From Mobula hypostoma (Eukaryota), in the NCBI RefSeq assembly GCF_963921235.1, contig NC_086097.1:123692001-123756000 (forward strand): a DNA stretch of 64,000 nt, written 5' to 3'. Under the pieces are notes generated by a model. That model made no database searches, was not told where the DNA came from, and saw only the letters and a program-made list of their open reading frames with translations. Of the stretch, positions 5,385 through 58,917 are shown piece after piece (within the stretch, counting starts at the first letter, position 1; every line of letters begins with the position of its first letter). The translations under genes and the position numbers were made by a program.

Positions 5385-6918
5385 ACGCACACAAAAAATG
5401 CTGGTGGAACACAGCAGGCCAGGCAGCATCTCTAGGAAGAGGTACAGTTGACGTTTCAGGCCGAGACCCTTCGTCAAGACTAACTAAAAGAAGAGATAGT
5501 AAGAGATTTGAGAGGGGGAGGGGGAGATCCGAAATCATAGGAGAAGACAGGAGGGGGAGGGATGGAGCTGAGAGCTGGAAAGTTGATTGGCAAAAGGGAT
5601 ACAAGGCTGGGGAAGGGAGAGGATCATGAGACGGGAAGCCTAGGGAGAAAGAAAGGGGGAGGGGAGCTCAGAGGATGGAGAGCAGGCAAGGAGTGATAGA
5701 GGGACAGAGGGAGAAAAAAGAGAGAAAAGGGGGGGAATAATAAATAAATACATAAGGGATGGGGAACCAAGGGGAGGAGGGGGCATTAACAGAAATTAGA
5801 GAAGTCAATGTTCATGCCATCAGGTTGGAGGCTACCCAGACAGAATATAGGTGTTTTTCCTCCAACCTGAGTGTGGCTTCATCTTTACAGTAGAGGAGGC
5901 CGTGGATAGACATGTCAGAATGGGAATGGGATGTGGAATTAAAATGTGTGGCCGCTGGGAGATCCTGCTTTCTCTGGCGGACAGAGCGTAGGTGTTCAGC
6001 GAAACGGTCTCCCAGCCTGCATCGGGTCTCACCAATATATAGAAAGCTACACACTGGGAGCACCGGATGCAGTATACCACCCCAGCCGACTCACAGGTGA
6101 AGTGTCGCCCCACCTGGAAGGACTGTCTGGGACCCTGAATGGTGATGAGGGAGGAAATGTAAGGGCATGTTTAGCACTTGTTCCGCTTACAAGGATAAGT
6201 GCCGGGAGGGAGATTGGTGGGAAGGGATGGCGGGGGACGAATGGACAAGGAAGTCGCGTAGGGAGCGATCCCTGCAGAAAGCAGAGGGGGGGAGGGAAAG
6301 ATGTGCTTGGTGGTGGGATCTCATTGGGGGTGGCGGAAGTTACAGAGAATTATATTTTGGACCCGGAGGCTGGTGGTGTGGTAGGTGAGGACAAGGGGAG
6401 TCCTATTCCTAGTGGGGTGGCAGGAGGATGGAGTGAGAGCAGATGTGCGTGAAATAGGAGAGATGCGTCTGAGAGCAGAGTTGATTGTGGAGGAAGGGAA
6501 GCCCCTTTCTTTAAAAAAGGAAGACGTCTCCTTCGTCCTGGAATGAAAAGCCTCATCCTGAGAGCAGATGCGGTGGAGACGGAGGAATTGCGAGAAGGGG
6601 ATGGCATTTTTGCAAGAGATAGGGTGGAAGCGGAATAATCCAGGTAGCTGTGAGAGTCCGTAGGCTTATAGTAGACATCAGTAGATAAGCTGTCTCCAGA
6701 GATAGAAGCAGAAAGTTCAAGAAAGGGAAGGGAGGTGTCAGAAATGGACCAGGTAAACTTGAGGGCAGGGTGAAAATTGGAGGCAGAGTTAATGAAGTCA
6801 ACTAGCTCAGCATGTGTGCAGAAAGCAGAGCCAATGCAGTCGTCGATGTAGCAAAGGAAAAGTGGGGGACAGATACCAGAATAGGCTTGGAACATGGATT
6901 GTTCCACAAAGCCAACAG
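5385..6918 (-). mobile_element. Penelope-like retroelement, 5'-truncated (RT C-terminal part, GIY-YIG endonuclease, terminal repeat)
   Basis: RT motif YIDD and LPFLE..DVYYKPTDSHSYL (ORF 6350-); [23 protein letters not shown] (ORF 5812-); 12-bp TSD aagtattttgca at 5373-5384 and 6919-6930. Confidence 0.92.
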
Positions 6919-8360
6919 AAGTATTTTGCATCAGTCTTCACTTGGGAAGACACAAGTAGTTTGGTGAAAGTTCCAGGTGTCGGGGGCATGAAGTATATGA
7001 AGTTACCATTACTACAGAGGATCTTGAGAAACTGAAAGTGGTGGCTGAAGAGATTGTGGAGGCATTAGTTATGATCTTTCAATAATCACTAGATTCCGGA
7101 ATGGCTCTGGAAAACTGGAAAATTGCAAATGTCACTCCGCTCTTCAAGAAGGGAGAGAGGCAGAAGAAAGGAAACTATAGGCCAGTTAGTCTGACCTCAG
7201 TGGTTGGGAAGATGTTGGAATCAATTATTATGGATAAGGTCTCTGGGTACTCGGAGGCACATGATAAAATAGACATGGTTTCCTCAAGGGAAAATCATGC
7301 CTGACAAATTTGTTGAAATTCTTTGAAGAAATGACTAGCAGGATAGACAAAGGAGAATTGGTTGATGTTAACTGGATTTTCAGAAGGCCTTTGGCAAGGT
7401 GCCACACCTGGGGCTGCTCAACAGGCTACAAGCCCATGATATTACAGGAAAGATTCTAGCATGGATAAAGCTGTAAAAATTTGGCAGGAAGCTAAGAGTA
7501 GGAATACAGGGAGCTTTTTTTTTGTTGGCTGCTGGTGACTCGTGGTGTTCCACAGTGGTCTGTGTTGAGATTGATTCTTTTTACATTATATTTCAGTGAT
7601 TTGGATGATAGAATTGATGGCTTGGTTAAAGTTTGCGGATGACATAAAGATAGGTAGAGTAGTAGGGTGTTTTGACAAAGTAGAAAGGCTACAGAATACT
7701 TAGATTAAGAGAATAGGCAAAGAAATAGCAGATAGAATACAGTCGAGAAGTGTATGGTTGTGCGCGTTAAAGAAGAATTGAAAGGGTTGGCTATCTTCTA
7801 AATGGAAAGAAAATAGAAAAAAAACTCAGGTGCCAAGGGACTTGGGATTCTTTGTGCAGGATTCCCTAAAGGTTAATTTGCAGGTTGAGTCTGTGGTGAG
7901 GAAGCCAAATGCGATGTTTGCATTCATTTCAGGAGGTCTAGTATATAAAAGCAAAGATGTAATGTTGAGACTTTATAAAGCACTGGTGAGGCCTCAGTTG
8001 GAGTATTGTGAACAGTTTTGGGCCCTTTTTCTTAGAAAGGATGTGCTGAAACTGGAGAGGATTCAAAAGAGGTTCAAGAAAATTATTCCAATTCAGGAAA
8101 ATTATTCCAGGATTGGATGGTTTGTCATATGAAGAGCATTTGATGTCTCTGGGCTTGTATTCACTAGATTTCAGAAGAATGAGGGGTGACCTCGTTGAAA
8201 CCTTATGAAATGATGAAAGGCCTTGATAGGATAGATGTGGAGAGGATGTTTTCTATGGTGGCAGAGTCTAAGACCAGAGGACACAGCTTCAGAATAGAGG
8301 GGTGTCCTTTTAGAATGGAGACGAGGAGGAATTTCTTCAGCCAGAGAGTGGTGTATCTGT

Positions 8361-9190
8361 TGTTACGTACCCCGTAACTGGGTTGCCAAACCAGCAGAAA
8401 TGGATCACTCAGTTGGAGTCTGGAGTACTAGAACTAAGAAAGTTTTATTAAAGAAACAAGCAACACAGTAATCGAAAGGATAATAAATGCAACAGTTCAG
8501 TGATGATAAACACACATGTGCACAGAATTAAGATAACAGCATCAATCAAGCTCTATCGTTGTCTAGGGGTTAAATGACCAATTTCAAAATGACTCAAAGT
8601 TCAGTCCAGTTTGTAGTTCAGTTCGCAGTAATCGTTGCCATGGCGATGGACAAGGTGGGGGAAGAGAGACAGAGAGAACAACTCATCATTCAGCACAGCT
8701 TCACTCACAGACCAGCGGGATGGCTCACAACCAGCTTTTGGGCAGGTCCTTGGTGATGTCACCTGAGGTCACCGACTGTGACCCCTCCTCCAGATGCGGT
8801 CGATCCTCTGCAGTGAACCCGGCACCCAGGCAAGGGCGGACACACACCGGGTTCCCGCTGATCGTACCTTTCCACCCACTCGTGAGAAGCGTACCGCTTC
8901 CAGGGTCTCGTTACCTCGGGTGGCGTGTGTGTCTGTCTTAGCGAACCTGTCCCTTTTTATCCCCCTGCTGGGGTATCGCCTGTCCATCACTTCAAACAGT
9001 TCAGGGCTCAAAGGGGGGAGCCGCTCCAGACAGCTCTTCCTCCCACATCCCTTCATTACACATCTCCAGACGCTGCTCCATTGTTCCTTATCTCTCCTTC
9101 CCCTGAGGGCAGGTGGCAGACCAACTGCTGATGCCACCGATGCTAGCCCAGGCCAGCAAACATCTTAATTTTATGTGTATTCTCGTAACA
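8361..9190. mobile_element. Solo LTR (830 bp)
   Basis: Ends TGTTACG...CGTAACA; 4-bp TSD ctgt at 8357-8360 and 9191-9194; empty site preserved in the duplicated copy at 19376-19379. Confidence 0.92.
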
Positions 9191-9239
9191 CTGTGGAATT
9201 CTTCGCTGCAGGCAGCTGTGGAGGTCAAGTCTTTATGTA

Positions 9240-10811
9240 CAGTGCCTTTAAAAAGAATTCACCCCCTTTGGAGGTTTCCATGTTTTATTATTTACAACAA
9301 TGAATCACAGTGTATTTAATTTGGCTTTCTTTGACACTGATCAACAGAAAAAGACTCTTTCATGTCAAAGTGAAAACAGATCTCGAGAAAGTGATCTAAA
9401 TTAGTTAGAAATATAAAACACAAAATAATTGATTGCTTAAGTTTTCACTCCCTTCAACTCAGTATTTAGTAGATGCGCATTTGGCAGCAATTACAGCCTT
9501 AAGTCTGTGGATAGATCTGTATCAGCTTTGCACATCTGAACACTGCAACCTTTCCCCGTTCTTCTTTACAAAATTGTTCAAGCTCTGTCAGATTGCATGG
9601 GGATTGTGAGTGAGCAGCCCTTTTCAAGTCCAGCCACAAAATCTCAATTGGATTGAGGTTTGGACTCTGACTTAGCCTCTCCAGGACATTAACTTTGTTG
9701 TTTTTAGGCCATTCCTGTGTAGCTTTGGCTTTACACTTGGGGTTATTCTCTTGCTGGAAAACAAAACTTCTCCCTAGTCGCAGTTCTCTTGCAGACTGCA
9801 TCAGGTTTTCCTCCAGGATTTCTCTGTATTTTGCTGGATTCGTATTACCCTCTACCTTCTCAAGCCTTCCAGGGCCTGCTGCAGTGGAGCATCCCCACAG
9901 CGTGATGCGTTCACCACCATGCTTCACGGTAGGGATGGGTGTTTATGATGTTCAGTGTCTGGCTTAAGTCAAACATAGGATTTAGTCTGATGGCCGAAAA
10001 GCTCAATTCTGGTTTCATCAGACCATAGAACCATCTTCCAGCTGACTTCAGAGTCTCCCACATGCCTTCTGACAAATCATAGCCAAGATTTCATGTGTGT
10101 TTTTTTTTCCAACAGTGACTTTCTCTTTGCCATTTTCCCGTAAACTTGTGACTGGTGAAGCACCTGGGCAACGATTGTTGTATGCCCAGTCTCTCCCATC
10201 TCAGTCACTGAAGCTTATAACTCCTTCAGAGTTGTTTTAGGTATATTGATGGCCTCCCTCACTAGTTCCCTTCTGCACGGTCACTAAGTTTTTGAGGACT
10301 GCCTGCTCTAGGTAGACTACAGTTGTGCGATATTCTTTCCATTTCTTGATGATTGACTTAACTGTACACCGGGGATATTCAGTGACTTGGAAATTTTCTT
10401 GTATCCAACTCCTGACTTGTGCTTTTCAATAACCTTTTTGTGGAGTTACTTTGTCTTCATGATGTAGTTTTGCCAGGATACTGACTCACCAGCAGCTGGA
10501 CTTTCCAGATACAGGTGTATTTTTACTACAATCATTTGAAACACCTTGACTGAACTCAGATCTCCATTTAACTAATTACGTGACTTCTAAAACCAGTTAG
10601 CTGTACCAGTGATGATTTGGGGTGTCATATTAAAGGGGATGAATACTTGTGCAATGAGTTATTTTATGTTTTATATTTGTAATTCATTTAGATTACTTTG
10701 ATACGAAAGAAAGCCAAATTAAATCTACTGTGATTCAATGTTGTAAAATTATAAAAAATGAAAATTTCCAAGGGGGAGGGGGCAGTGTGTGAATACTTTT
10801 TATGGGCACTG
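9240..10811 (-). mobile_element. Tc1-like DNA transposon with decayed transposase
   Basis: TA-cagtgcc...ggcactg-TA termini with long inverted repeats; ORF 9499..9927(-) KHGG..ITLWGC..FQQENNPK..SQSPNLNPIE.LW, with the second and third catalytic Asp positions altered. Confidence 0.92.
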
Positions 10812-13402: not shown

Positions 13403-13448
13403 GTATTGCCTCTGAATTTGGTGTCCGAGGTTATCCAACTATCAAATT
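13403..13448 (+). CDS. TMX3: TMX3 coding exon (GIASEFGVRGYPTIKL)
   Basis: ccccAG acceptor, GTaagt donor; 46 nt, phase 1 to 2, in frame with previous exon; contains the GYPT cis-proline motif of thioredoxin folds. Confidence 0.95.
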
Positions 13449-15140
13449 GTAAGTTAAGATTTGTTGTATGTTTGTTATTGTATTGTGCCTTTGGTGTGAC
13501 AGAATATTGTTGAAGGTTTCCATTATGAATTGATTTGAATTGGAAATTGACTGAGTTACATGTAGAAAATTCCTGCAGCTATAAAGTATATTCTATTCAA
13601 ATTTAATTTACTTACATAGTTAAGAGAGGTCATAAATATAGGCTTTGTACATCGATTCAGTTAATCAGCATTAACTTCTTCTCCAAAGGGCATAGTTCAT
13701 GTTAAATTTGTCATTACTGCAGACATTAGTGGGATATAGAAAGCAATTACACAACTATTTGTTCACGTTTTTTATTAAAGGTCAACAAGGCTGAGATTAA
13801 TTACCTTGTTAATTGAGTTTTTGTGAAGCTGTGTGCTAGTTTGCCTGTTCATTTGTATGTTAAGATCTTAAACTTATTTTACTGTTTCACAGTTTCTTTT
13901 GTTAATCGTCAGTGGATGACTTAATATTTTTACATTTTTTTAAAACTCTATTTGCCTAGTTATTTAAATTGTCTGTGGTCTTTATGTAACTAGTTCCATT
14001 TCTTCTATGACTTACCATGCCACTATTGGAGAAACCTAGACGTACAATTTTATTGTTTCATTAAATAGAGTGGAAAATGTGAGGCTTGATGCAGGTGTTA
14101 AAGAGCACTGCCTATCACGTCGGCTTTTCAGAGAATACATATGTTTTCCATACTCTGCTTCTCTGGCCCATGCTGTATTTTGAGATTAGCTCTGATTGTT
14201 GTGGGTTCACTTTTTTATCATTTGTGCCAAACTTTATGGAAGGTACACATGACCAGTGTTCATGGTCACACTTCTAGCCTCCATACATACAATGCCAACC
14301 CAAAATGTCAACAGTTCCTTTCCTTTTTGCCCACAGATACACTTGATACACTGAGGTCCTGCAGCACATTGTCTGTTGCTCCACAATCATGATTGGTTCA
14401 TAACTTTCCAGAAGTGAAGTTGGGGGGGTGGGGGGGGTAACTAAATTATCTAGTATTACCTTTTCTTGAATGTGATTTTTTAATTAGTACATGTTCCAGT
14501 GAATTCTCATGTACAATGAAGCACTCATGTGAGAAGTACGATGATGGACTAAAGGTTGTGCTTCTAATGTGTAATATGTAATAAGCTTGGTTCAATCTAT
14601 TTTTAATCTCGCTTACACTTTGAAGCCAGCAACAATTTTAATATGAGAGCATCAGTGACTCAAATTTTAGTTCAGTTTCAAAATGATATGGATACAAGTT
14701 GTGGTTAATTTATCAGAAGGACTTGGTATCATGTAATTATTTATTTATTGTTATTTTTTCTTCTATTTCTGTATTTGCACAGACCGTCTTCTTTTGCACA
14801 TTAGTTGTCAGTCCTTGTGTGTAGTTTTCGTTGATTCTGTTATTTTTTTTGTTCTACTGTGAATGCCTGCAAGAAAATGAATCGCAAGGTAGTATATGGT
14901 GACATATAAGCATTTTGACAATAAAATTGCTTTGAACCTTCATAATTATGAAGAAGATTTACCAGGATGAAACTTGGATTAAAAAACATAAAGGTGGGTT
15001 GAGTGAGCTAGGGTTTTTCTCTCTGGAGAGAAAGAACATGAGAGGTAACTTGATAGAGGTGTACAAGATGATAAGAGATATTGATCGAATGGACAGCCCA
15101 AGATTTTTTCCCAGGATGAAAGTGACTAATACAAGGGACA

Positions 15141-15273
15141 AACAACAGGAATTCTGCAGATGCTGGAAATTCAAGCAACATACATCAAAGTTGCTGGTGA
15201 ACGCAGCAGGCCAAGCAGCATCTATAGGAAGAGGCGCAGTCGACGTTTCAGGCCGAGACCCTTCGTCAGGACA
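15141..15273 (-). mobile_element. Minimal PLE 3'-end insertion (hammerhead plus tail only) inside a CR1 3' fragment (~14950-15520)
   Basis: 14-bp TSD taatacaagggaca at 15127-15140 and 15274-15287; the insert stops just past the hammerhead core. Confidence 0.88.
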
Positions 15274-18200
15274 TAATACAAGGGACATGTCTTTAAGGCG
15301 ATTGGAGGAAAGTATAGCAGAATGTTAGAGGCAGATTTTTTACACAGAGAATGGTAGCTGCACAGAATGTGCTGCTACAAGTGGTGATAAAGGCAGATAT
15401 GTGAGGGACATTTAAGAGACTCTTAGATAGGCAGATAGATGAAAGAAAAATGGAAGGCTATGTGAGAGAGAAGGGATAGATTGATCTTCGAGTAGGTTAA
15501 AAGCCTTTCCTGCGCCATACTCTAATTAACTTTGAGCAAATTAAATCATTCTAAGCAATATTAGAAAGAAGCAGAAGATCATGGGTATCTCGCACGGTGT
15601 ATCTTTTCTACTATTCAATAATACCATGGTATGACTTGAGTTGGAAAAGTAAGACAATTAATCTATTTTATTGTAACCTAATAGCAGTACAGATCTAATG
15701 AAAAGAATGAGTTCAGTATATATTATTGATACAGGTTTCCCCTGCCATCCGAAGGTAAAGCGTTCCTATGTTCCTATGAAACGGTTCGTAAGCCGGAATG
15801 TCGTAAAGCGAAGAAGCAATTACCATTAATTTATATGGGAAAAATTTGTGAGCGTTCACAGACCCAAAAATAACCTACCAAATCATGCCAAATAACACAT
15901 AAAACCTAAAATAACAGTAACATATAGTAAAAGCAGGAATGATATGATGAATACACAGTCTATATAAAGTAGAAATAATCCCACTTTTCCACAATCATTG
16001 CCTGCACTGTTCAGTAACCTTTAAGCGATGAAGCTGCCAAATCATACCAAATAACACATAAAAATACACAGCCTATATAAAGTAGAAATAATGTATGTAC
16101 AGTGTAGTATCACTTACCAGAATCGAGAAGTCAGCTTGCCGAGCAAACTGATGATGGTGTGTTAGGCTGAGTCATCGGAGTCTGGGTGGTGCAGTGGCCC
16201 CCACCCTCTGGACAGCGAACCGATACCGATCCGCGAAGCACGCAGAGGTACAGCGGTGGCCGGGACGCACTCAGCACATCTTTAAGAAAAAAGCCAAAAT
16301 AAACAAGCTAATTAATTAGGTGCCGCCCGGCATGTACATGTCAGCCCAGATCAGAGGCGATGCAATCGGCAATTGCCTCTGATCTGGGCCGACATTTATG
16401 TGCCGGGCGGCACCAAATTAATTAAAGTTGCTGGTGAACGTAGCAGGCCAGACAGCATCTCTAGGAAGAGGTACAGTCAACGTTTCAGGCCGAGACCCTT
16501 CGTCAGGACTAACTGAAGGAAGAGTTAGTAAGAGATTTGAGAGGGGGAGGGGGAGATCTAAAATGATAGGAGAAGACAGGAGGGGGAGGGATGGAGCCAA
16601 GAGCTGGACAGGTGATTGGCAAAGGGGATATGAGAGGATCAGGGGACAGGAGGCCCAAGGAGAAAGAAAAGGGGGAGGGGGGAAAACACAGACAATGGGC
16701 AAGGGGTATAATGAGAGGGACAGAGGGAGGAAAAAGGAGAGAGAGAAAAAGAATGTGTGTATATAAATAAATAATGGATGGGGTACGAGGGGGAGGTGGG
16801 GCATTAGCGGAAGTTAGGGAAGTCGATGTTCATGCCATCAGGTTGGAGGCTACCCAGACGGAATATAAGTTGTTCCTCCAACCTGAGTGTGGCTTCAGCT
16901 TTACAGTAGAGCAGGCCATGGATAGACATGTCAGAATGGGAATGGGATGTGGAATTAAAATGTGTGGCCACTGGCAGATCCTGCTTTCTCTGGCGAACAG
17001 AGCGTAGGTGTTCAGCGAAACAGTCTCCCAGCCTGCATCGGGTCTCACCAATATATAGAAAGCTACACACTGGGAGCACCGGATGCAGTATACCACCCCA
17101 GCCGACTCACGGGTGAAGTGTCGCCCCACCTGGAAGGACTGTCTGGGACCCTGAATGGTGATGAGGGAGGAAATGTAAGGGCATGTGTAGCACTTGTTCC
17201 GCCTACAAGGATAAGTGCCGGGAGGGAGATTGGTGGGAAGGGATGGCGGGGGACGAATGGACAAGGAAGTCGCGTAGGGAGTGATCCCTGCAGAAAGCAG
17301 GGGGGGGGAGGGAAAGATGTGCTTGGTGGTGGGATCTCATTGGGGGTGGCGGAAGTTACGGAGAATTATATTTTGGACCCGGAGGCTGGTGGGGTGGTAG
17401 GTGAGGACAAGGGGAGTCCTATTCCTAGTGGGGTGGCAGGAGGATGGACTGAGAGCAGATGTGCGTGAAATAGGAGAGATGCGTCTGAGAGCAGAGTTGA
17501 TTGTGGAGGAAGGGAAGCCCCTTTCTTTAAAAAAGGAAGACGTCTCCTTCGTCCTGGAATGAAAAGCCTCATCCTGAGAGCAGATGCGGTGGAGACGGAG
17601 GAATTGCGAGAAGGGGATGGCAGTTTTGCAAGAGATAGGGTGGAAGCGGAATAATCCAGGTAGCTGTGAGAGTCCGTAGGCTTATAGTAGACATCAGTAG
17701 ATAAGCTGTCTCCAGAGATAGAAGCAGAAAGTTCAAGAAAGGGGAGGGAGGTGTCAGAAATGGACCAGGTAAACTTGAGGGCAGGGTGAAAATTGGAGGC
17801 AGAGTTAATGAAGTCAACTAGCTCAGCATGCGTGCAGAAAGCAGTGCCAATGCAGTCGTCGATGCAGCAAAAGAAAAGTGGGGGACAGATACCAGTATAG
17901 GCTTGGAACATGGATTGTTCCACAAAGCCAACAGAAGTATTTTGCATCAGTCTTCACTTGGGAAGACAGTAGTAGTTTGGTGAAAGTTCCAGGTGTCGGG
18001 GGCATGAAGTATATGAAGTTACCATTACTACAGAGGATCTTGAGAAACTGAAAGTGGTGGCTGAAGAGATTGTGGAGGCATTATTTATGATCTTTCAATA
18101 ATCACTAGATTCCGGAATGGCTCTGGAAAACTGGAAAATTGCAAATGTCACTCCACTCTTCAAGAAGGGAGAGAGGCAGAAGAAAGGAAACTATAGGCCA

Positions 18201-19504
18201 GTTAGTCTGACCTCAGTGGTTGGGAAGATGTTGGAATCAATTATTATGGATAAGGTCTCTGGGTACTCGGAGGCACATGATAAAATAGACATGGTTTCCT
18301 CAAGGGAAAATCATGCCTGCCAAATTTGTTGGAATTCTTTGAAGAAATAACTAGCAGGATAGACAAAGGAGAATTGGTTGATGTTAACTGGATTTTCAGA
18401 AGGCCTTTGGCAAGGTGCCACACCTGGGGCTGCTCAACAGGCTACAAGCCCATGATATTACAGGAAAGATTCTAGCATGGATAAAGCTGTAAAAATTTGG
18501 CAGGAAGCTAAGAGTAGGAATACAGGGAGCCTTTTCTTTTTGTTGGCTGCTGGTGACTCGTGGTGTTCCACAGTGGTCTGTGTTGAGATTGATGCTTTTT
18601 ACATTATATTTCAATGATTTGGATGATAGAATTGATGGCTTGGTTAAAGTTTGCGGATGACATAAAGATAGGTAGAGTAGTAGGGTGTTTTGACGAAGTA
18701 GAAAGGCTACAGAATACTTAGATTAAGAGAATAGGCAAAGAAATAGCAGATAGAATACAGTCGAGAAGTGTATGGTTGTGCCCGTTAAAGAAGAATTGAA
18801 AGGGTTGGCTATCTTCTAAATGGAAAGAAAATAGAAAAAAAAACTCAGGTGCCAAGGGACTTGGGATTCTTTGTGCAGGATTCCCTAAAGGTTAATTTGC
18901 AGGTTGAGTCTGTGGTGAGGAAGCCAAATGCGATGTTAGCATTCATTTCAGGAGGTCTAGTATATAAAAGCAAAGATGTAATGTTGAGACTTTATAAAGC
19001 ACTGGTGAGGCCTCAGTTGGAGTATTGTGAACAGTTTTGGGCCCCTTTTCTTAGAAAGGATGTGCTGAAACTGGAGAGGATTCAAAAGAGGTTCAAGAAA
19101 ATTATTCCAATTCAGGAAAATTATTCCAGGATTGGATGGTTTGTCATATGAAGAGCATTTGATGTCTCTGGGCTTGTATTCACTAGATTTCAGAAGAATG
19201 AGGGGTGACCTCGTTGAAACCTTATGAAATGATGAAAGGCCTTGATAGGATAGATGTGGAGAGGATGTTTTCTATGGTGGCAGAGTCTAAGACCAGAGGA
19301 CACAGCTTCAGAATAGAGGGGTGTCCTTTTAGAATGGAGACGAGGAGGAATTTCTTCAGCCAGAGAGTGGTGTATCTGTGGAATTCTTCGCTGCAGGCAG
19401 CTGTGAAGGTCAAGTCTTTATGTACAGTGCCTTTAAAAAGAATTCACCCCCTTTGGAGGTTTCCATGTTTTATTATTTACAACAATGAATCACAGTGTAT
19501 TTAA

Positions 19505-19742
19505 GCAACATACATCAAAGTTGCTGGTGAATGCAGCAGGCCAAGCAGCATCTATAGGAAGAGGCGCAGTCGACGTTTCAGGCCGAGACCCTTCGTCAGG
19601 ACTCAGTTAGTCCTGACGAAGGGTCTCGGCCTGAAACGTCGACTGCGCCTCTTTCTATAGATGCTGCTTGGCCTGCTGCGTTCACCAGCAACTTTGATGT
19701 ATGTTGCTTGAATTTCCAGCATCTGCAGAATTCCTGTTGTTT
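19505..19742. mobile_element. 238-bp hairpin mini-PLE
   Basis: Perfect 13-bp TSD acagtgtatttaa (19492-19504, 19743-19755); ~99-bp inverted arms around a 5-nt loop; empty site at 9307-9319 in the donor. Confidence 0.93.
19609..19645 (+). ncRNA. Minimal type-I hammerhead ribozyme motif
   Basis: agtc-CTGACGA-agg gtctcgg cct-GAAA-C-GTC-gact: conserved core, 3-bp stem II, palindromic ACGT stem III, stem I agtc/gact. Confidence 0.8.
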
Positions 19743-20558
19743 ACAGTGTATTTAATTTGGCTTTCTTTGACACTGATCAACAGAAAAAGACTCTTTCATG
19801 TCAAAGTGAAAACAGATCTCTAGAAAGTGATCTAAATTGGTTAGAAATATAAAACACAAAATAATTGATTGCTTAAGTTTTCACTCCCTTCAACTCAGTA
19901 TTTAGTAGATGCGCATTTGGCAGCAATTACAGCTTTAAGTCTGTGGATCTCGCCAATATATAGAAGGCCACATCGGGAGCACCGGACGCAGTATATCACC
20001 CCAGCCGACTCACAGGTGAAGTGTCGCCTCACCTGGAAGGACTGTCTGGGGCCCTGAATGGTCCCAGTCTGCGTCGGGTTTGAAAGCAGGATCTCCCAGT
20101 GGCCACACATTTTAATTCCACATCCCATTCCCATTCTGACATGTCTATCCACGGCCTCCTCTACTGTAAAGATGAAGCCACACTCAGGTTGGAGGAACAA
20201 CACCTTATATTCCGTCTGGGTAGCCTCCAACCTGATGGCATGATCATTGACTTCTCTCACTTCCACTAATGCCCCACCTCCCCCTCGTACCCCATCCGTT
20301 ATTTATTTTTATACACACATTCTTTCTCTCACTCTCCTTTTTCTCCCCCTGTCCCTCTGACTATACCCCTTGCCCATCCTCTGGTTCCCCCCCCCGCCCC
20401 GTCTTTCTCCCCGGACCTCCTGTCCCATGATCCTCTCATATCCCCTTTGCCAATCACCTGTCCAGCTCTTGGCTCCATCCCTCCCCCTCCTGTCTTCTCC
20501 TATCATTTTGGATCTCCCCTTCCCACTTTCAAATCTCTTACTAACTCTTCCTTCAGTT

Positions 20559-20595
20559 AGTCCTGACGAAGGGTCTCGGCCTGAAACGTCGACTG
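20559..20595 (+). ncRNA. Minimal type-I hammerhead ribozyme motif
   Basis: CTGACGA 20563-20569, GAAA 20583-20586, GTC triplet 20588-20590, stem I agtc/gact. Confidence 0.8.
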
Positions 20596-21716
20596 TACCT
20601 CTTCCTAGAGATGCTGCCTGGCCTGCTGCATTCACCAGCAACTTTGATGTGTGTTGCTTGAATTTCCAGCATCTGCAGAATTCCTGTTGTTTACCTAATT
20701 AATTAGCTTGTTTATTTCGGCTTTTTTTCTTAAAGGTATGCTGAGTGCGTTCCAGCTACTGCTGCATTCTCCGCGAATCGGTATCTGTCCGCAGCCTGGG
20801 GGTTGGGGTGGTGGGACACTGGGGTGTCATCTCATCGTCAATCAGGGCTGGCAGGTCATCTTCTTCTATGTCTGCCTGCCTCAATGTCGAAGATCGAGGT
20901 TCGTCGTCTGCTGTGGCTGATGTGGAAGGCTTGCTTGACTACTTAGCCTTGCGCATTTTTCTATCACACAGTTCTTTGTAAGCACTCAAACCATCTTACA
21001 GATATGCCCTAAACCGACGTACCCTTTCAAAATTAAAGTCGTACTTTATCATTGCAGCGAAAATCTCACGCAGTTGCTTCACGTTCAGTTCCTGGATGAC
21101 TTCACTTTCGCACTGCATTCGCTTTCATTTGTTATCCTTTCCTCTTCCAATTGCATCAGCTCTTCATCTATCAGTTCTTGGTCATGGGATGCCAAAACTT
21201 ATTCAACATCATCTTCATCAACTTCCACAAGCCAAACTCACTTTGTCCTTACTTCGTTCACCACGATCAAAACGCTTAATTACGTCTAGTTTTACGCTAA
21301 CTGTAACACCCTTACGAGCTCTTTCAGGCTTTTCCAATACCTTAGAACTTGCTAACGGCTGCTCACAGGCACGTGTTTAAGCAATGCCAGCGAGAATGCC
21401 ATTCCGAATCCGGGGGAGAGCGGCTGCTCGGGGTGCGCGCTGATTTTTTTATCGCATGCTGATTTTTTTCGCGCGCTGATTTTTTCCGTAATGGTGAAAG
21501 CACCTTCTGTTAGCGAGAACAGGTAACTAAAGTAGGTCTTTCGTAACAGTGAGGTTTCATAAAGCGAACGTTCGAAAAGTGGGGGGACACCTGTAATCTT
21601 GTACTTTTGAATTCATCTAGAATTTGTCCTTTGAAGTTACTCACCTGCATCAAGAGGTGATGCTTGATAAGTTGTGGCGTTTGCATTTGATCAGAATGTG
21701 TCTTTTGTATTGACAG

Positions 21717-21797
21717 ATTAAAGGGAGATCTTGCCTATAATTACAGAGGACCTCGTACGAAAGAAGATATAATTGAATTTGCTAACAGGGTGTCAGG
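21717..21797 (+). CDS. TMX3: TMX3 coding exon (LKGDLAYNYRGPRTKEDIIEFANRVSG)
   Basis: tgacAG acceptor, GTgagt donor; 81 nt, phase 2 to 2, in frame. Confidence 0.95.
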
Positions 21798-56475: not shown

Positions 56476-56830
56476 GTGGGTAGGCGGGTGTCAGTGATGC
56501 ACTGGGCAGTTTTGACTAACAGGTTGTTGTTGTAATGTGAGCATAATTAAAAGTAAGTTAATACTAATTAGGATAATGGGGGGTTTTTACTTCCAGTTTG
56601 TTTGTATATAGTGTTCCTGCCATGCCATACAGGTTGTAAAAGTATCTGTATATAGATTAGGATTTTGACGTTCGAGATAAAGTTGTTTCTTTGGGCATGA
56701 AGTTATTGAGTGGGGCTTTTTCAAAGTAGAAGTTACCACATATTTTTGGCGACAAAGTAAACTGGTTTTGTGGACGTGTCGGCACGTCTTGAACGGGAGC
56801 AGCAGCGCCGATAAGGGGCCTCACGTTCAG

Positions 56831-58917
56831 ATGGCTACGTTTGGGACTATCATTGAATTTGTGGAGGTTACGGAGGACTGGTCGGAGTATGAGGAAAGGT
56901 TGGGACACTTTTTCTGTGCTAATGGAATTACTGAGGAGGCTAAGAAGCGCTCTATTCTCCTGAGTGTGTGTGGGGCAAAGACTTACAAGCTAATGAGGAA
57001 TTTAGCCACACCGTGGAAACCAGGGGACATTCCATATAACGAACTGGTCAAGTTCGTGGGGAACCACTACAATCTGAAACCTTCTGTGATAGTCCAACGG
57101 TGTAAGTTTCATAGCCGTTTCAGGAAGCCAGGTTGGTCTGTGGCCGAGCTTCAGCAGCATAATGACGGCATACAACTCCGCCTGTTACGGGAAACCCCAC
57201 CGCTGACTCTCAAGAAAGCCTTAGAGATTGCCCAAGGCATGGATATGGCTGCTAATAATGTCAAGGATATCCAGAAAGGACAGGGGGGGTTGCAGTCTGT
57301 GGCCATGCACCAAGTCAGGAGGGAGACTGGTAAACAGGCAAAGCGGGTGGAATGTTTCCAGTGTGGAGGGATGCACTATGCAAATAATTGCAAATTCAAA
57401 GACACTGTCTACCATGCTTGTAGCAAAAAGGGACATTTAGCTAAAAAGTGCAGAAGTTCAAAGGGTAAGATTAAGCCTGGGCAGGGGAAACCTCAACAGG
57501 CTCAGGCAGCCACACACCATCTAGAAGAAGCAGATGAAGAGGCAGCATGTGCCTACAACATGTTTGCAGTGGAAACAGATGAAGAACCACCTGACCATAT
57601 TATGCCAGTCACTGTCAGGGGAAAGGACATTAAGTTTGAGATTGATTCCAGGGCTACTGCATCAGTCATTAGTGAGGAGACCTACAGGAGGACATAGGGG
57701 TAAGCTTTTCACAAAGCTGGACATGAGCCACGCCTATCAACAGCTGCTGCTTGACGAGGATTCAAAGGAGTATGTCACAATTAATACACACAAGGGATTA
57801 TTCAAGTACAATCGCCTGGTGTTTGGAGTGGCATCCAGCTCTGCCGTTTTCCAAAGGACAATGGACTCTTTGCTGCAGGGGATTCCGCACGGAGCAGTGT
57901 ACCTTGATGATACTTTGATCTCTGGGGCTACGGAGGTGGAGCATCTGGCTAATTTAGGACGGGTGCTGTAGAGGCTCTCAGACGCAGGGCTGCAGTTGAA
58001 ATGCGGAAAATGTGTGTTCCTGGCATCGAGTGTGACTTACCTGGGACACAAGATCACCGCCCCCCAACCATAGACAAACTTAGGCAAGTGGTTGCAGTCC
58101 GCGGGTTGCCTGACACTCTGGTCACTGATAATGGCCCAATGTTCACCAGTGAGCTGTTCAGTGAGTTCATGCAGCAGAATGGCATTCATCACACTCAGAC
58201 GGCCCCTTTCCACCCAGCCTCCAATGGTTTGGCTGAGCGGCTGTTCAGACAGTGAAGGAAAGCCTGAAGCGGATGACAATGGGACTCTTAGCATTCAGCT
58301 TTCACATTTCCTGTTTCAATACCGCCTCACACCACAGACTATGACTGCCCGCACTCCCGCAGAGATGCTGATGGGGCGTAGGCCCAAGTCAAGATTGGAC
58401 CTGCTGCGCGGGACATGAAGGCAAAAGTGGAGAGAAAGCAGGAAAAGCAGAAGGAGGGACATGATCAGCAAGCACGAGAGAGACAGTTAAAACCGGATGG
58501 CAATGACTATTTGAGAAACAATCAGCAATGGCTGCCTGGGGTTATTCTTAAACAGAGTGGTCCCGTCGCCTATGTGGTTAAGCTGACTGATGGGCGTGTT
58601 TTCCGCAGACATCAGGACCATGTGCGCCTGCAACATGATACCGGCTCAGAGGCAGACAGTTCCATGGAGTTTCCATTTGTGAGACAGACTATGGTGGAAG
58701 CATGTCCACCAGTGACTTTGTCAGAGGGGAGATGCTGGCAGAGGGGCCGGGGTCCCCTGAGGAGGATGGACATTCTCACGCAGACACACAGACCCCTCTC
58801 ATGTCCCCAAAACCAGATCCACCCAAAACACCCTCACCAGCAGTGCCTGCTGGATCACCGGGGGTAGTGCACAGATTACAGCGCACTCGTAAACCTCCTG
58901 ACAGACCGAATCTTTGA
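56831..58917 (+). pseudogene. Gypsy gag-pol remnant: gag with two zinc knuckles, protease start, RT fragment, integrase fragments
   Basis: MATFGTIIEF..DWSEYEERL; CFQCGGMHYANNC and HACSKKGHLAKKC; FEIDSRA (mutated DSGA); KLDMSHAYQQL..YLDD; LVTDNGPMF..APFHPASNGLAER; stops, frameshifts and large deletions. Confidence 0.9.

Follow-up and report, generated by a model that had tools for sequence, protein, structure and literature searches.

A Penelope-like element insertion enclosing a 2.7-kb copy of neighbouring intron DNA in Mobula hypostoma

Introduction

How does a retroelement insertion come to enclose a copy of the host DNA next door? This question is raised by a 4,268-bp insert at positions 16425-20692 of the window, the 64,000-nucleotide stretch of the Mobula hypostoma genome (3.48 Gb) analysed here (contig NC_086097.1, forward strand, 123,692,001 to 123,756,000; G000:C1:123692001-123756000 in our numbering). 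The insert lies in an intron of a PDI-family gene, which we take to be TMX3, and is framed by two arms of a Penelope-like element (PLE). It encloses DNA copied from a donor 11 kb, and one intron, upstream in the same gene. A first-pass annotation of the sequence had attributed this arrangement to a younger PLE whose synthesis jumped onto a local template during integration, possibly the nascent pre-mRNA of the host gene. How PLEs finish integration and how they acquire host DNA are described as open questions in PMC8557442 and PMC11167929. At this locus the donor, the entry, the exit and the relative ages can all be read, and they point to DNA-level strand invasion over RNA read-through. The structure is real and unusually legible, a pre-mRNA template is unlikely, and no exon was moved.

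Results

Structure of the insert and its donor

The insert is bounded by a 13-bp target site duplication (TSD) whose two copies differ by one base, and the 3' ends of both PLE arms point outward, all as first described (Table 1). At its first two bases the TSD also agrees with the PLE tail. Placed on a family reference, the insert reads as a left arm from about position 49, a donor-derived body to 1541, cargo from a long interspersed nuclear element (LINE) and a Tc1-like element, PLE 672-789, PLE ~655-672 and the inverted right arm from 620 to 1. The labels CR1 for the LINE and Tc1-like for the other element are provisional and in part taken over from the first-pass annotation. Since the PLE pieces that follow the cargo resume in the orientation of the left arm, the cargo sits inside that arm. 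At the right cargo junction, 1-4 bp of microhomology are shared with a PLE piece running rightward.

Comparison of the window with itself found 5399-8360, 9191-9319 and 9307-9512 repeated at 16429-19379, 19376-19504 and 19743-19948. Two later insertions account for the gaps in this match; each has a TSD, and its empty site can be seen in the other copy. One is a solo long terminal repeat (LTR) in the donor, whose empty site is at 19376-19379 of the copy and which was likely inserted after the duplication. The other is a palindromic PLE in the cargo, which differs from a copy at 15140 at one of 133 positions. Cargo and donor differ by 34 substitutions over 2,682 aligned bases (1.27%), near-identical as had been claimed.

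The left end of the copied DNA was located by comparison with 78 relative segments. The copy tracks the young PLE family to 16970 and carries the donor's private variants from 17017, and this variant pattern marks the left junction as an in-register homologous switch. The exchange lies between these points, probably within 16997-17016, and not at ~17031 as first proposed. Identity to the donor per 100 bp rises from ~84-95% left of 17000 to 95-100% right of it, the step that had been predicted there.

The cargo contains the donor's PLE/CR1 junction with its TSD copy, a doubled aaaattattcca and the CR1/Tc1 junction, each of which had been cited as a mark of copying. The PLE/CR1 junction was spanned by two of 40 scored genome matches, a lower bound, and these two were the donor and the copy, in agreement with its earlier description as private. 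The CR1/Tc1 junction had two near-identical matches among the 40, and 11 of the 40 spanned it at only 79-85% identity, so that this junction is not private. Recurrence of the LINE/Tc1-like junction (19424/19425 and 9239/9240; loci L003-L010) may mean that the 3' region of the LINE is a hot spot for Tc1 or that the two form an old composite.

Table 1. Coordinates and properties of the features of the insert, its donor and the intervening host exon (window positions)
Feature	Position	Strand	Remarks
Donor PLE, older	5386..6918	-	Inside LINE; 12-bp TSD
Copied donor stretch	6001..9512	+	2,682 bases without the LTR
Solo LTR, donor only	8361..9190		830 bp; TG..CA; 4-bp TSD; absent from copy
Host exon between donor and copy	13403..13449	+	PDI-family gene; neighbouring exons 2370-2493 and 21718-21797
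Left TSD copy	16412..16424		One mismatch; palindromic site of high-copy DNA transposon
Left PLE arm	16425..16996	-	3' end outward; lacks ~49 nt of tail; earlier subfamily grade; 13 private substitutions in 563 columns
In-register homologous switch, left arm to donor PLE	16971..17016		Donor ~5955-6000
Cargo: copy of donor PLE body (thumb/endonuclease region)	17017..17934	-	16 substitutions in 918
Cargo: copy of LINE fragment	17935..19424	+	Begins with TSD copy of donor PLE
Cargo: first part of Tc1-like element	19425..19948	+	Ends at donor 9512
Later palindromic PLE inside cargo	19505..19743 (approximate)		13-bp TSD; youngest subfamily; absent from donor
Return PLE fragment	19945..20062	-	Left-arm orientation; 1-4 bp microhomology to cargo
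19-bp linker	20063..20081	-	First 17 bases repeat the PLE segment directly before the return fragment
Right PLE arm	20082..20692	+	Full 3' tail; later subfamily grade; 5 private substitutions in 611 columns
Right TSD copy	20693..20705

Ages of the two arms

In the two youngest two-armed insertions of the family (L163 and L164) the arms differ at 5 of 1,082 and 8 of 805 sites (0.5% and 1.0%). Arms therefore start alike, and the divergence between them can be used as a clock for PLE insertions, much as that between paired LTRs is used. The arms of the present insert differ at 36 of 560 sites. The first-pass annotation had placed both in the same subfamily. They do have a short motif in common, but they are of different grade: 20 of 39 subfamily-polymorphic columns differ between them, against fractions of 0.03-0.34 in 16 other arm pairs. 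In a tree of 76 rows built from segments of at least 470 bases, the left and right arms fall in different grades separated by starred nodes, with end branches of 0.038 and 0.0093.

Private changes amount to 2.3% of the left arm and 0.8% of the right arm, and the capture itself to 0.6-0.9% per lineage. Compared with the PLE part of the cargo (16/1836 per lineage), the left arm carries an excess (p=0.013) and the right arm does not (p=1.0). The return fragment differs from the family majority at one of 111 positions, at the junction itself, and looks young. By these counts the left arm looks older than the capture, and the right arm matches it in age. On whether capture coincided with an integration the ages are divided: those of the right arm and the return fragment agree with that of the cargo, and that of the left arm does not.

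No near-identical source of the left arm was found, the best match reaching 93-94% among 40 scored of 6,465 candidates. One pattern built on private variants of this arm matched only itself, and another matched two copies merely 89-90% alike. Two other accounts of the variant distribution were rejected. Gene conversion of the donor by a young PLE was considered because the tract 5857-6000 looked young; its haplotype, including G5954, also occurs in old-lineage copies, among them L082 and L091. A systematic excess of mutation in short-tailed arms was also considered, and on inspection the tree shows no such asymmetry.

A recurrent target site

Two exact search patterns retrieved 16 sites at which a PLE tail joins the transposon motif, the insert's own included (reversed controls gave 0 and 1). 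The 15 further junctions, all at the same nucleotide, are all PLE ends with differing truncations; a matching left TSD copy was seen for 12, and one lies at the mirror-image site. A control position in the same transposon gave no PLE junction, although the abundance of the control motif may differ. The genome contains 2,465 exact empty target sites. Insertion duplicates the target so that the TSD regenerates the motif, which makes re-cutting possible. The target is a palindromic AT-rich site in a high-copy DNA transposon, presumably Tigger as labelled in the first-pass annotation, and it has been hit by tails of several PLE subfamilies (L108-L122, L163, L164).

The PLE family

Family copies at L143 and L163 encode RVT_1 (E 2.4e-5) and GIY-YIG (E 1.7e-4) domains, both just below the curated Pfam cut-offs; longer homologs match PF00078 and PF26215, and some also PF01541. 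The broken PLE fragments of the window itself gave no relevant Pfam match. The family copies thus combine a reverse transcriptase with a C-terminal endonuclease of the GIY-YIG type in one open reading frame, as endonuclease-containing PLEs do. The L163 translation has two cysteines between GIY and YIG and a CX2-5CxxC linker, the Neptune/Nematis type by the definitions in the part of PMC8557442 available. The inverted, 5'-truncated copy with a one-sided tail and a TSD of variable length, also typical of such elements, is present as well. The family's common form has two outward arms, one with a full tail and the other starting ~30-50 nt in. These two-armed insertions have TSDs of 10-14 bp and patchwork junctions, and single short-tailed arms with their own TSD also occur.

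At the inversion junctions of L068:1260-1400, L052:2205-2263, L050 and L021, several short fold-back or repeated PLE pieces are found, apparently showing repeated template jumping. At L175:4359-4911 (the same as L022:692-1244), two PLE arms within a single TSD enclose 553 bp of another retroelement. This fragment is frameshifted, has by eye a CCHC-like motif and the look of a restriction-enzyme-like nuclease, has no second copy among the loci examined, and may be a capture of foreign RNA. A near-intact young PLE reverse transcriptase region lies just downstream of the window (L143:4116-5953), with a 504-amino-acid open frame and a frameshift before the endonuclease. In the right arm, 20563-20586 has by eye a hammerhead-like CUGAnGA..GAAA core; Rfam gave no hammerhead match there, only hairpin-driven miRNA and leader matches below threshold, and the fold z-score was -0.65.

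Comparison across sequencing runs

Run X1 is identical to the window over 1,134 flank bases. Its contigs have a depth of 13.6-17 in the cargo and 8.6-11.4 in the unique flanks; at 18782 one of them has the donor allele. Runs X5 and X6, from a related species, differ from the window by 29 substitutions over the same length of flank and show intermediate depth in the cargo; run X15 yielded short repeat pieces only. Judged by divergence, the capture is likely younger than the split from the related species, and the left arm is possibly older than it. A short PLE of the youngest subfamily at 15140-15272 appears absent from runs X5 and X6.

Discussion

The structure argues for copying at the DNA level. 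Very probably, the cargo was synthesized on a DNA template, with homology at one end and microhomology at the other. Because the left arm and the donor PLE have the same orientation and were paired in register, the + orientation of the cargo was forced and is no evidence on the nature of the template. A PLE is reverse-transcribed starting at the 3' end of its RNA and proceeding inward. The return fragment follows this direction rightward from the end of the cargo, so the primer was likely the + strand of the cargo, itself copied from the minus strand. That template would likely have been local DNA rather than pre-mRNA. Invasion at the DNA level is common to the three histories weighed first below, and taken together these three command high confidence.

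The history we prefer, at a rough probability of 0.5, has two steps, in which a younger PLE re-cut a site already holding the left arm and the left end invaded the donor, with copying resembling synthesis-dependent strand annealing (SDSA). An earlier PLE would have inserted at the transposon site and left the left arm, its TSD regenerating the target motif. A later PLE would then have nicked the regenerated site, and the right arm would have been made by target-primed reverse transcription. The other broken end, ending in the old arm, could have invaded the same-orientation donor PLE on the same chromatid, the sister or the homolog, and been extended on the minus strand beyond the homology, through the LINE into the Tc1-like element (2.7 kb). 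With 1-4 bp of microhomology, the freed 3' end may have primed on the young PLE template in the manner of twin priming; the return fragment and the linker would have arisen in this step, and the end would then have been joined to the right arm. Insertion of the solo LTR and of the inner PLE would have followed. We include a further route to the same product, a PLE-mediated deletion of 11 kb that was subsequently rescued through unequal crossover of the left arm with the donor PLE. In vitro, both DNA strands are cleaved by PLE protein, which favours AT-rich DNA and is able to cut its own pseudo-LTR (pLTR), according to PMC11167929.

Several points weigh against this history. A second hit at one site is rare, with ~16 filled against 2,465 empty exact sites (less than ~1% per site). 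The private counts of the left and right arms differ only at p=0.055 when grade-specific majorities are used (p=0.009 with a pooled majority); the majorities are biased because relatives were selected for their likeness to each arm, and the counts are small. Arm pair L036 also spans grades. The contigs from the related species, swamped by repeats, gave no joint informative on the orthologous state. Finally, a stretch of ~70 nt of the PLE includes the switch as well as the points where the right arm ends and the return fragment starts, and a single break or a single event is the simpler explanation of such clustering.

A single break would have occurred in one older two-armed insertion, as a later double-strand break in the spacer between the inverted repeats. 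Its repair would have involved one-sided invasion at the donor PLE and joining by microhomology, without renewed PLE activity. We consider this possible, though it is not where we would place our expectation. The left arm resumes 24-69 nt past the switch with the cargo inside it, and the break would fall at one edge of the spacer in the palindrome, where fragility is plausible. The divergence of the arms on conserved columns, 3.3%, is ordinary for pairs from the same insertion, and, taken together, the two arms exceed the whole cargo in age (p=0.003). However, the subfamily haplotypes of the arms differ more than in any of the 16 other pairs, the end branch of the right arm is among the two shortest in the tree, and the return fragment looks young, albeit over 111 columns.

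The account nearest to the first-pass annotation is a single integration: a different PLE RNA would have served as template for a new left arm, which jumped by homology to the donor DNA and then back to the PLE template. Its homology-guided PLE-PLE junction is borne out. Everything is enclosed by one TSD, the junctions cluster as described, patchwork junctions are frequent in the family (e.g. L021, L050, L052, L068), and one two-armed insertion encloses the 553-bp foreign fragment. Against these stand the left arm's 13 private changes, which exceed the cargo's age by the comparison given above, the failure to find a near-identical source among the candidates scored, and the near-identity of arms in young insertions. 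A single integration is therefore doubtful and, in our view, unlikely.

Reverse transcription of the cargo from RNA, either nascent host pre-mRNA, as the first-pass annotation had suggested, or an antisense read-through transcript of the donor, is very unlikely. The host gene is on the + strand with the donor in its intron, and the proximity fits a nascent transcript. The orientation is nevertheless accounted for by homology, and the junction polarity would imply a + strand product, which pre-mRNA could not template. An assembly artefact or an ordinary dispersed composite, for which one might cite the repeat-rich region, the lack of an examined contig spanning the whole stretch and the recurrence of the CR1/Tc1 junction at 79-85%, has a negligible chance of being correct, given the 34 substitutions, the raised depth and donor allele in run X1, and the restriction of the PLE/CR1 junction to two of 40 scored matches; the separate later insertions in the two copies, each with its TSD, also make an artefact unlikely.

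A transduced or composite element would be expected to carry the same cargo at several dispersed loci; here only donor and copy were found to span the PLE/CR1 junction in the matches scored, which bears out the local capture originally proposed. A duplicated local template inside a TSD-bounded insertion, the mark of L1 templated insertions, is what was found. In the portion available of 10.1101/2024.08.27.596794, such insertions involve SDSA-like pairing of the growing cDNA with nearby DNA, and chimeric L1s are described. As there, the insertion takes in and duplicates local genomic DNA and has twin-priming-like inversion junctions with small deletions or duplications. The L1 templates are, in that portion, typically shorter than 250 bp and within 15 bp, whereas here the template is 2.7 kb long and 7-11 kb away, the element is a PLE, the event is fixed in the germline and entry was by in-register homology to an older copy. 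PLEs, too, can likely generate copies of adjacent host DNA, in a manner comparable to that of L1 elements in humans.

In Adineta vaga, according to the text seen of PMC3846280, host DNA has been captured between the pLTRs of Penelope elements, with a TSD. Both cases have non-PLE DNA framed by PLE ends and one TSD in an inverted terminal arrangement. The rotifer cargo was moved to a new location, with no adjacent donor or homologous entry described in that text; in the present insert, by contrast, the donor lies nearby and homology underlies one of the junctions. Canonical inverted, 5'-truncated PLEs share the outward 3' ends, the tail on one arm (30-40 bp), the 10-14-bp TSD and the AT-rich target, as far as the excerpts of PMC8557442 and PMC11167929 go. 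The present insert is set apart from them by arms of different grade and internal host cargo.

Outside retroelements, one-sided invasion and long-tract ectopic gene conversion are known outcomes of repair at double-strand breaks. Homologous entry, synthesis past the homology and exit by end joining are shared with that process; here, by contrast, the exit joins young PLE pieces, suggesting involvement of the PLE machinery.

No PLE-linked local duplication in fish was apparent by title or abstract opening in the literature surveyed, outside which most subscription papers lie. No second PLE-framed local copy was present, by coordinates, among 66 listed pairs of at least 95% identity in 464 kb including the window. 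None occurred in 13 extended loci either, samples too small to imply rarity. It is a speculative proposal, which we would sooner doubt than adopt, that PLEs in this fish lineage re-cut their own regenerated sites and that invasion of older copies in the vicinity is their routine way of resolving integration. If true, with copies every few kilobases, PLEs would be a general engine of kilobase-scale local duplication, and potentially of exon shuffling, through DNA rather than RNA transduction. The exon shuffling raised by the first-pass annotation did not occur here, as the host exon lies between donor and copy and is absent from the copied stretch. The direct biological effect is probably nil, since this is one event carrying only repeat fragments. 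DNA-level invasion is a testable route for intron-retaining gene capture in rotifers, and the recurrent target site is a natural substrate for PLE endonuclease assays.

Other retroelements in and near the window

A 338-amino-acid gag-like frame with a zinc-knuckle-like motif lies at 56681-57697 and by eye likely belongs to an LTR retrotransposon (Pfam gave a weak unrelated match). Three relatives of the donor's solo LTR, at 91-92% identity, lie ~50-56 kb upstream of the window (L137, L138).

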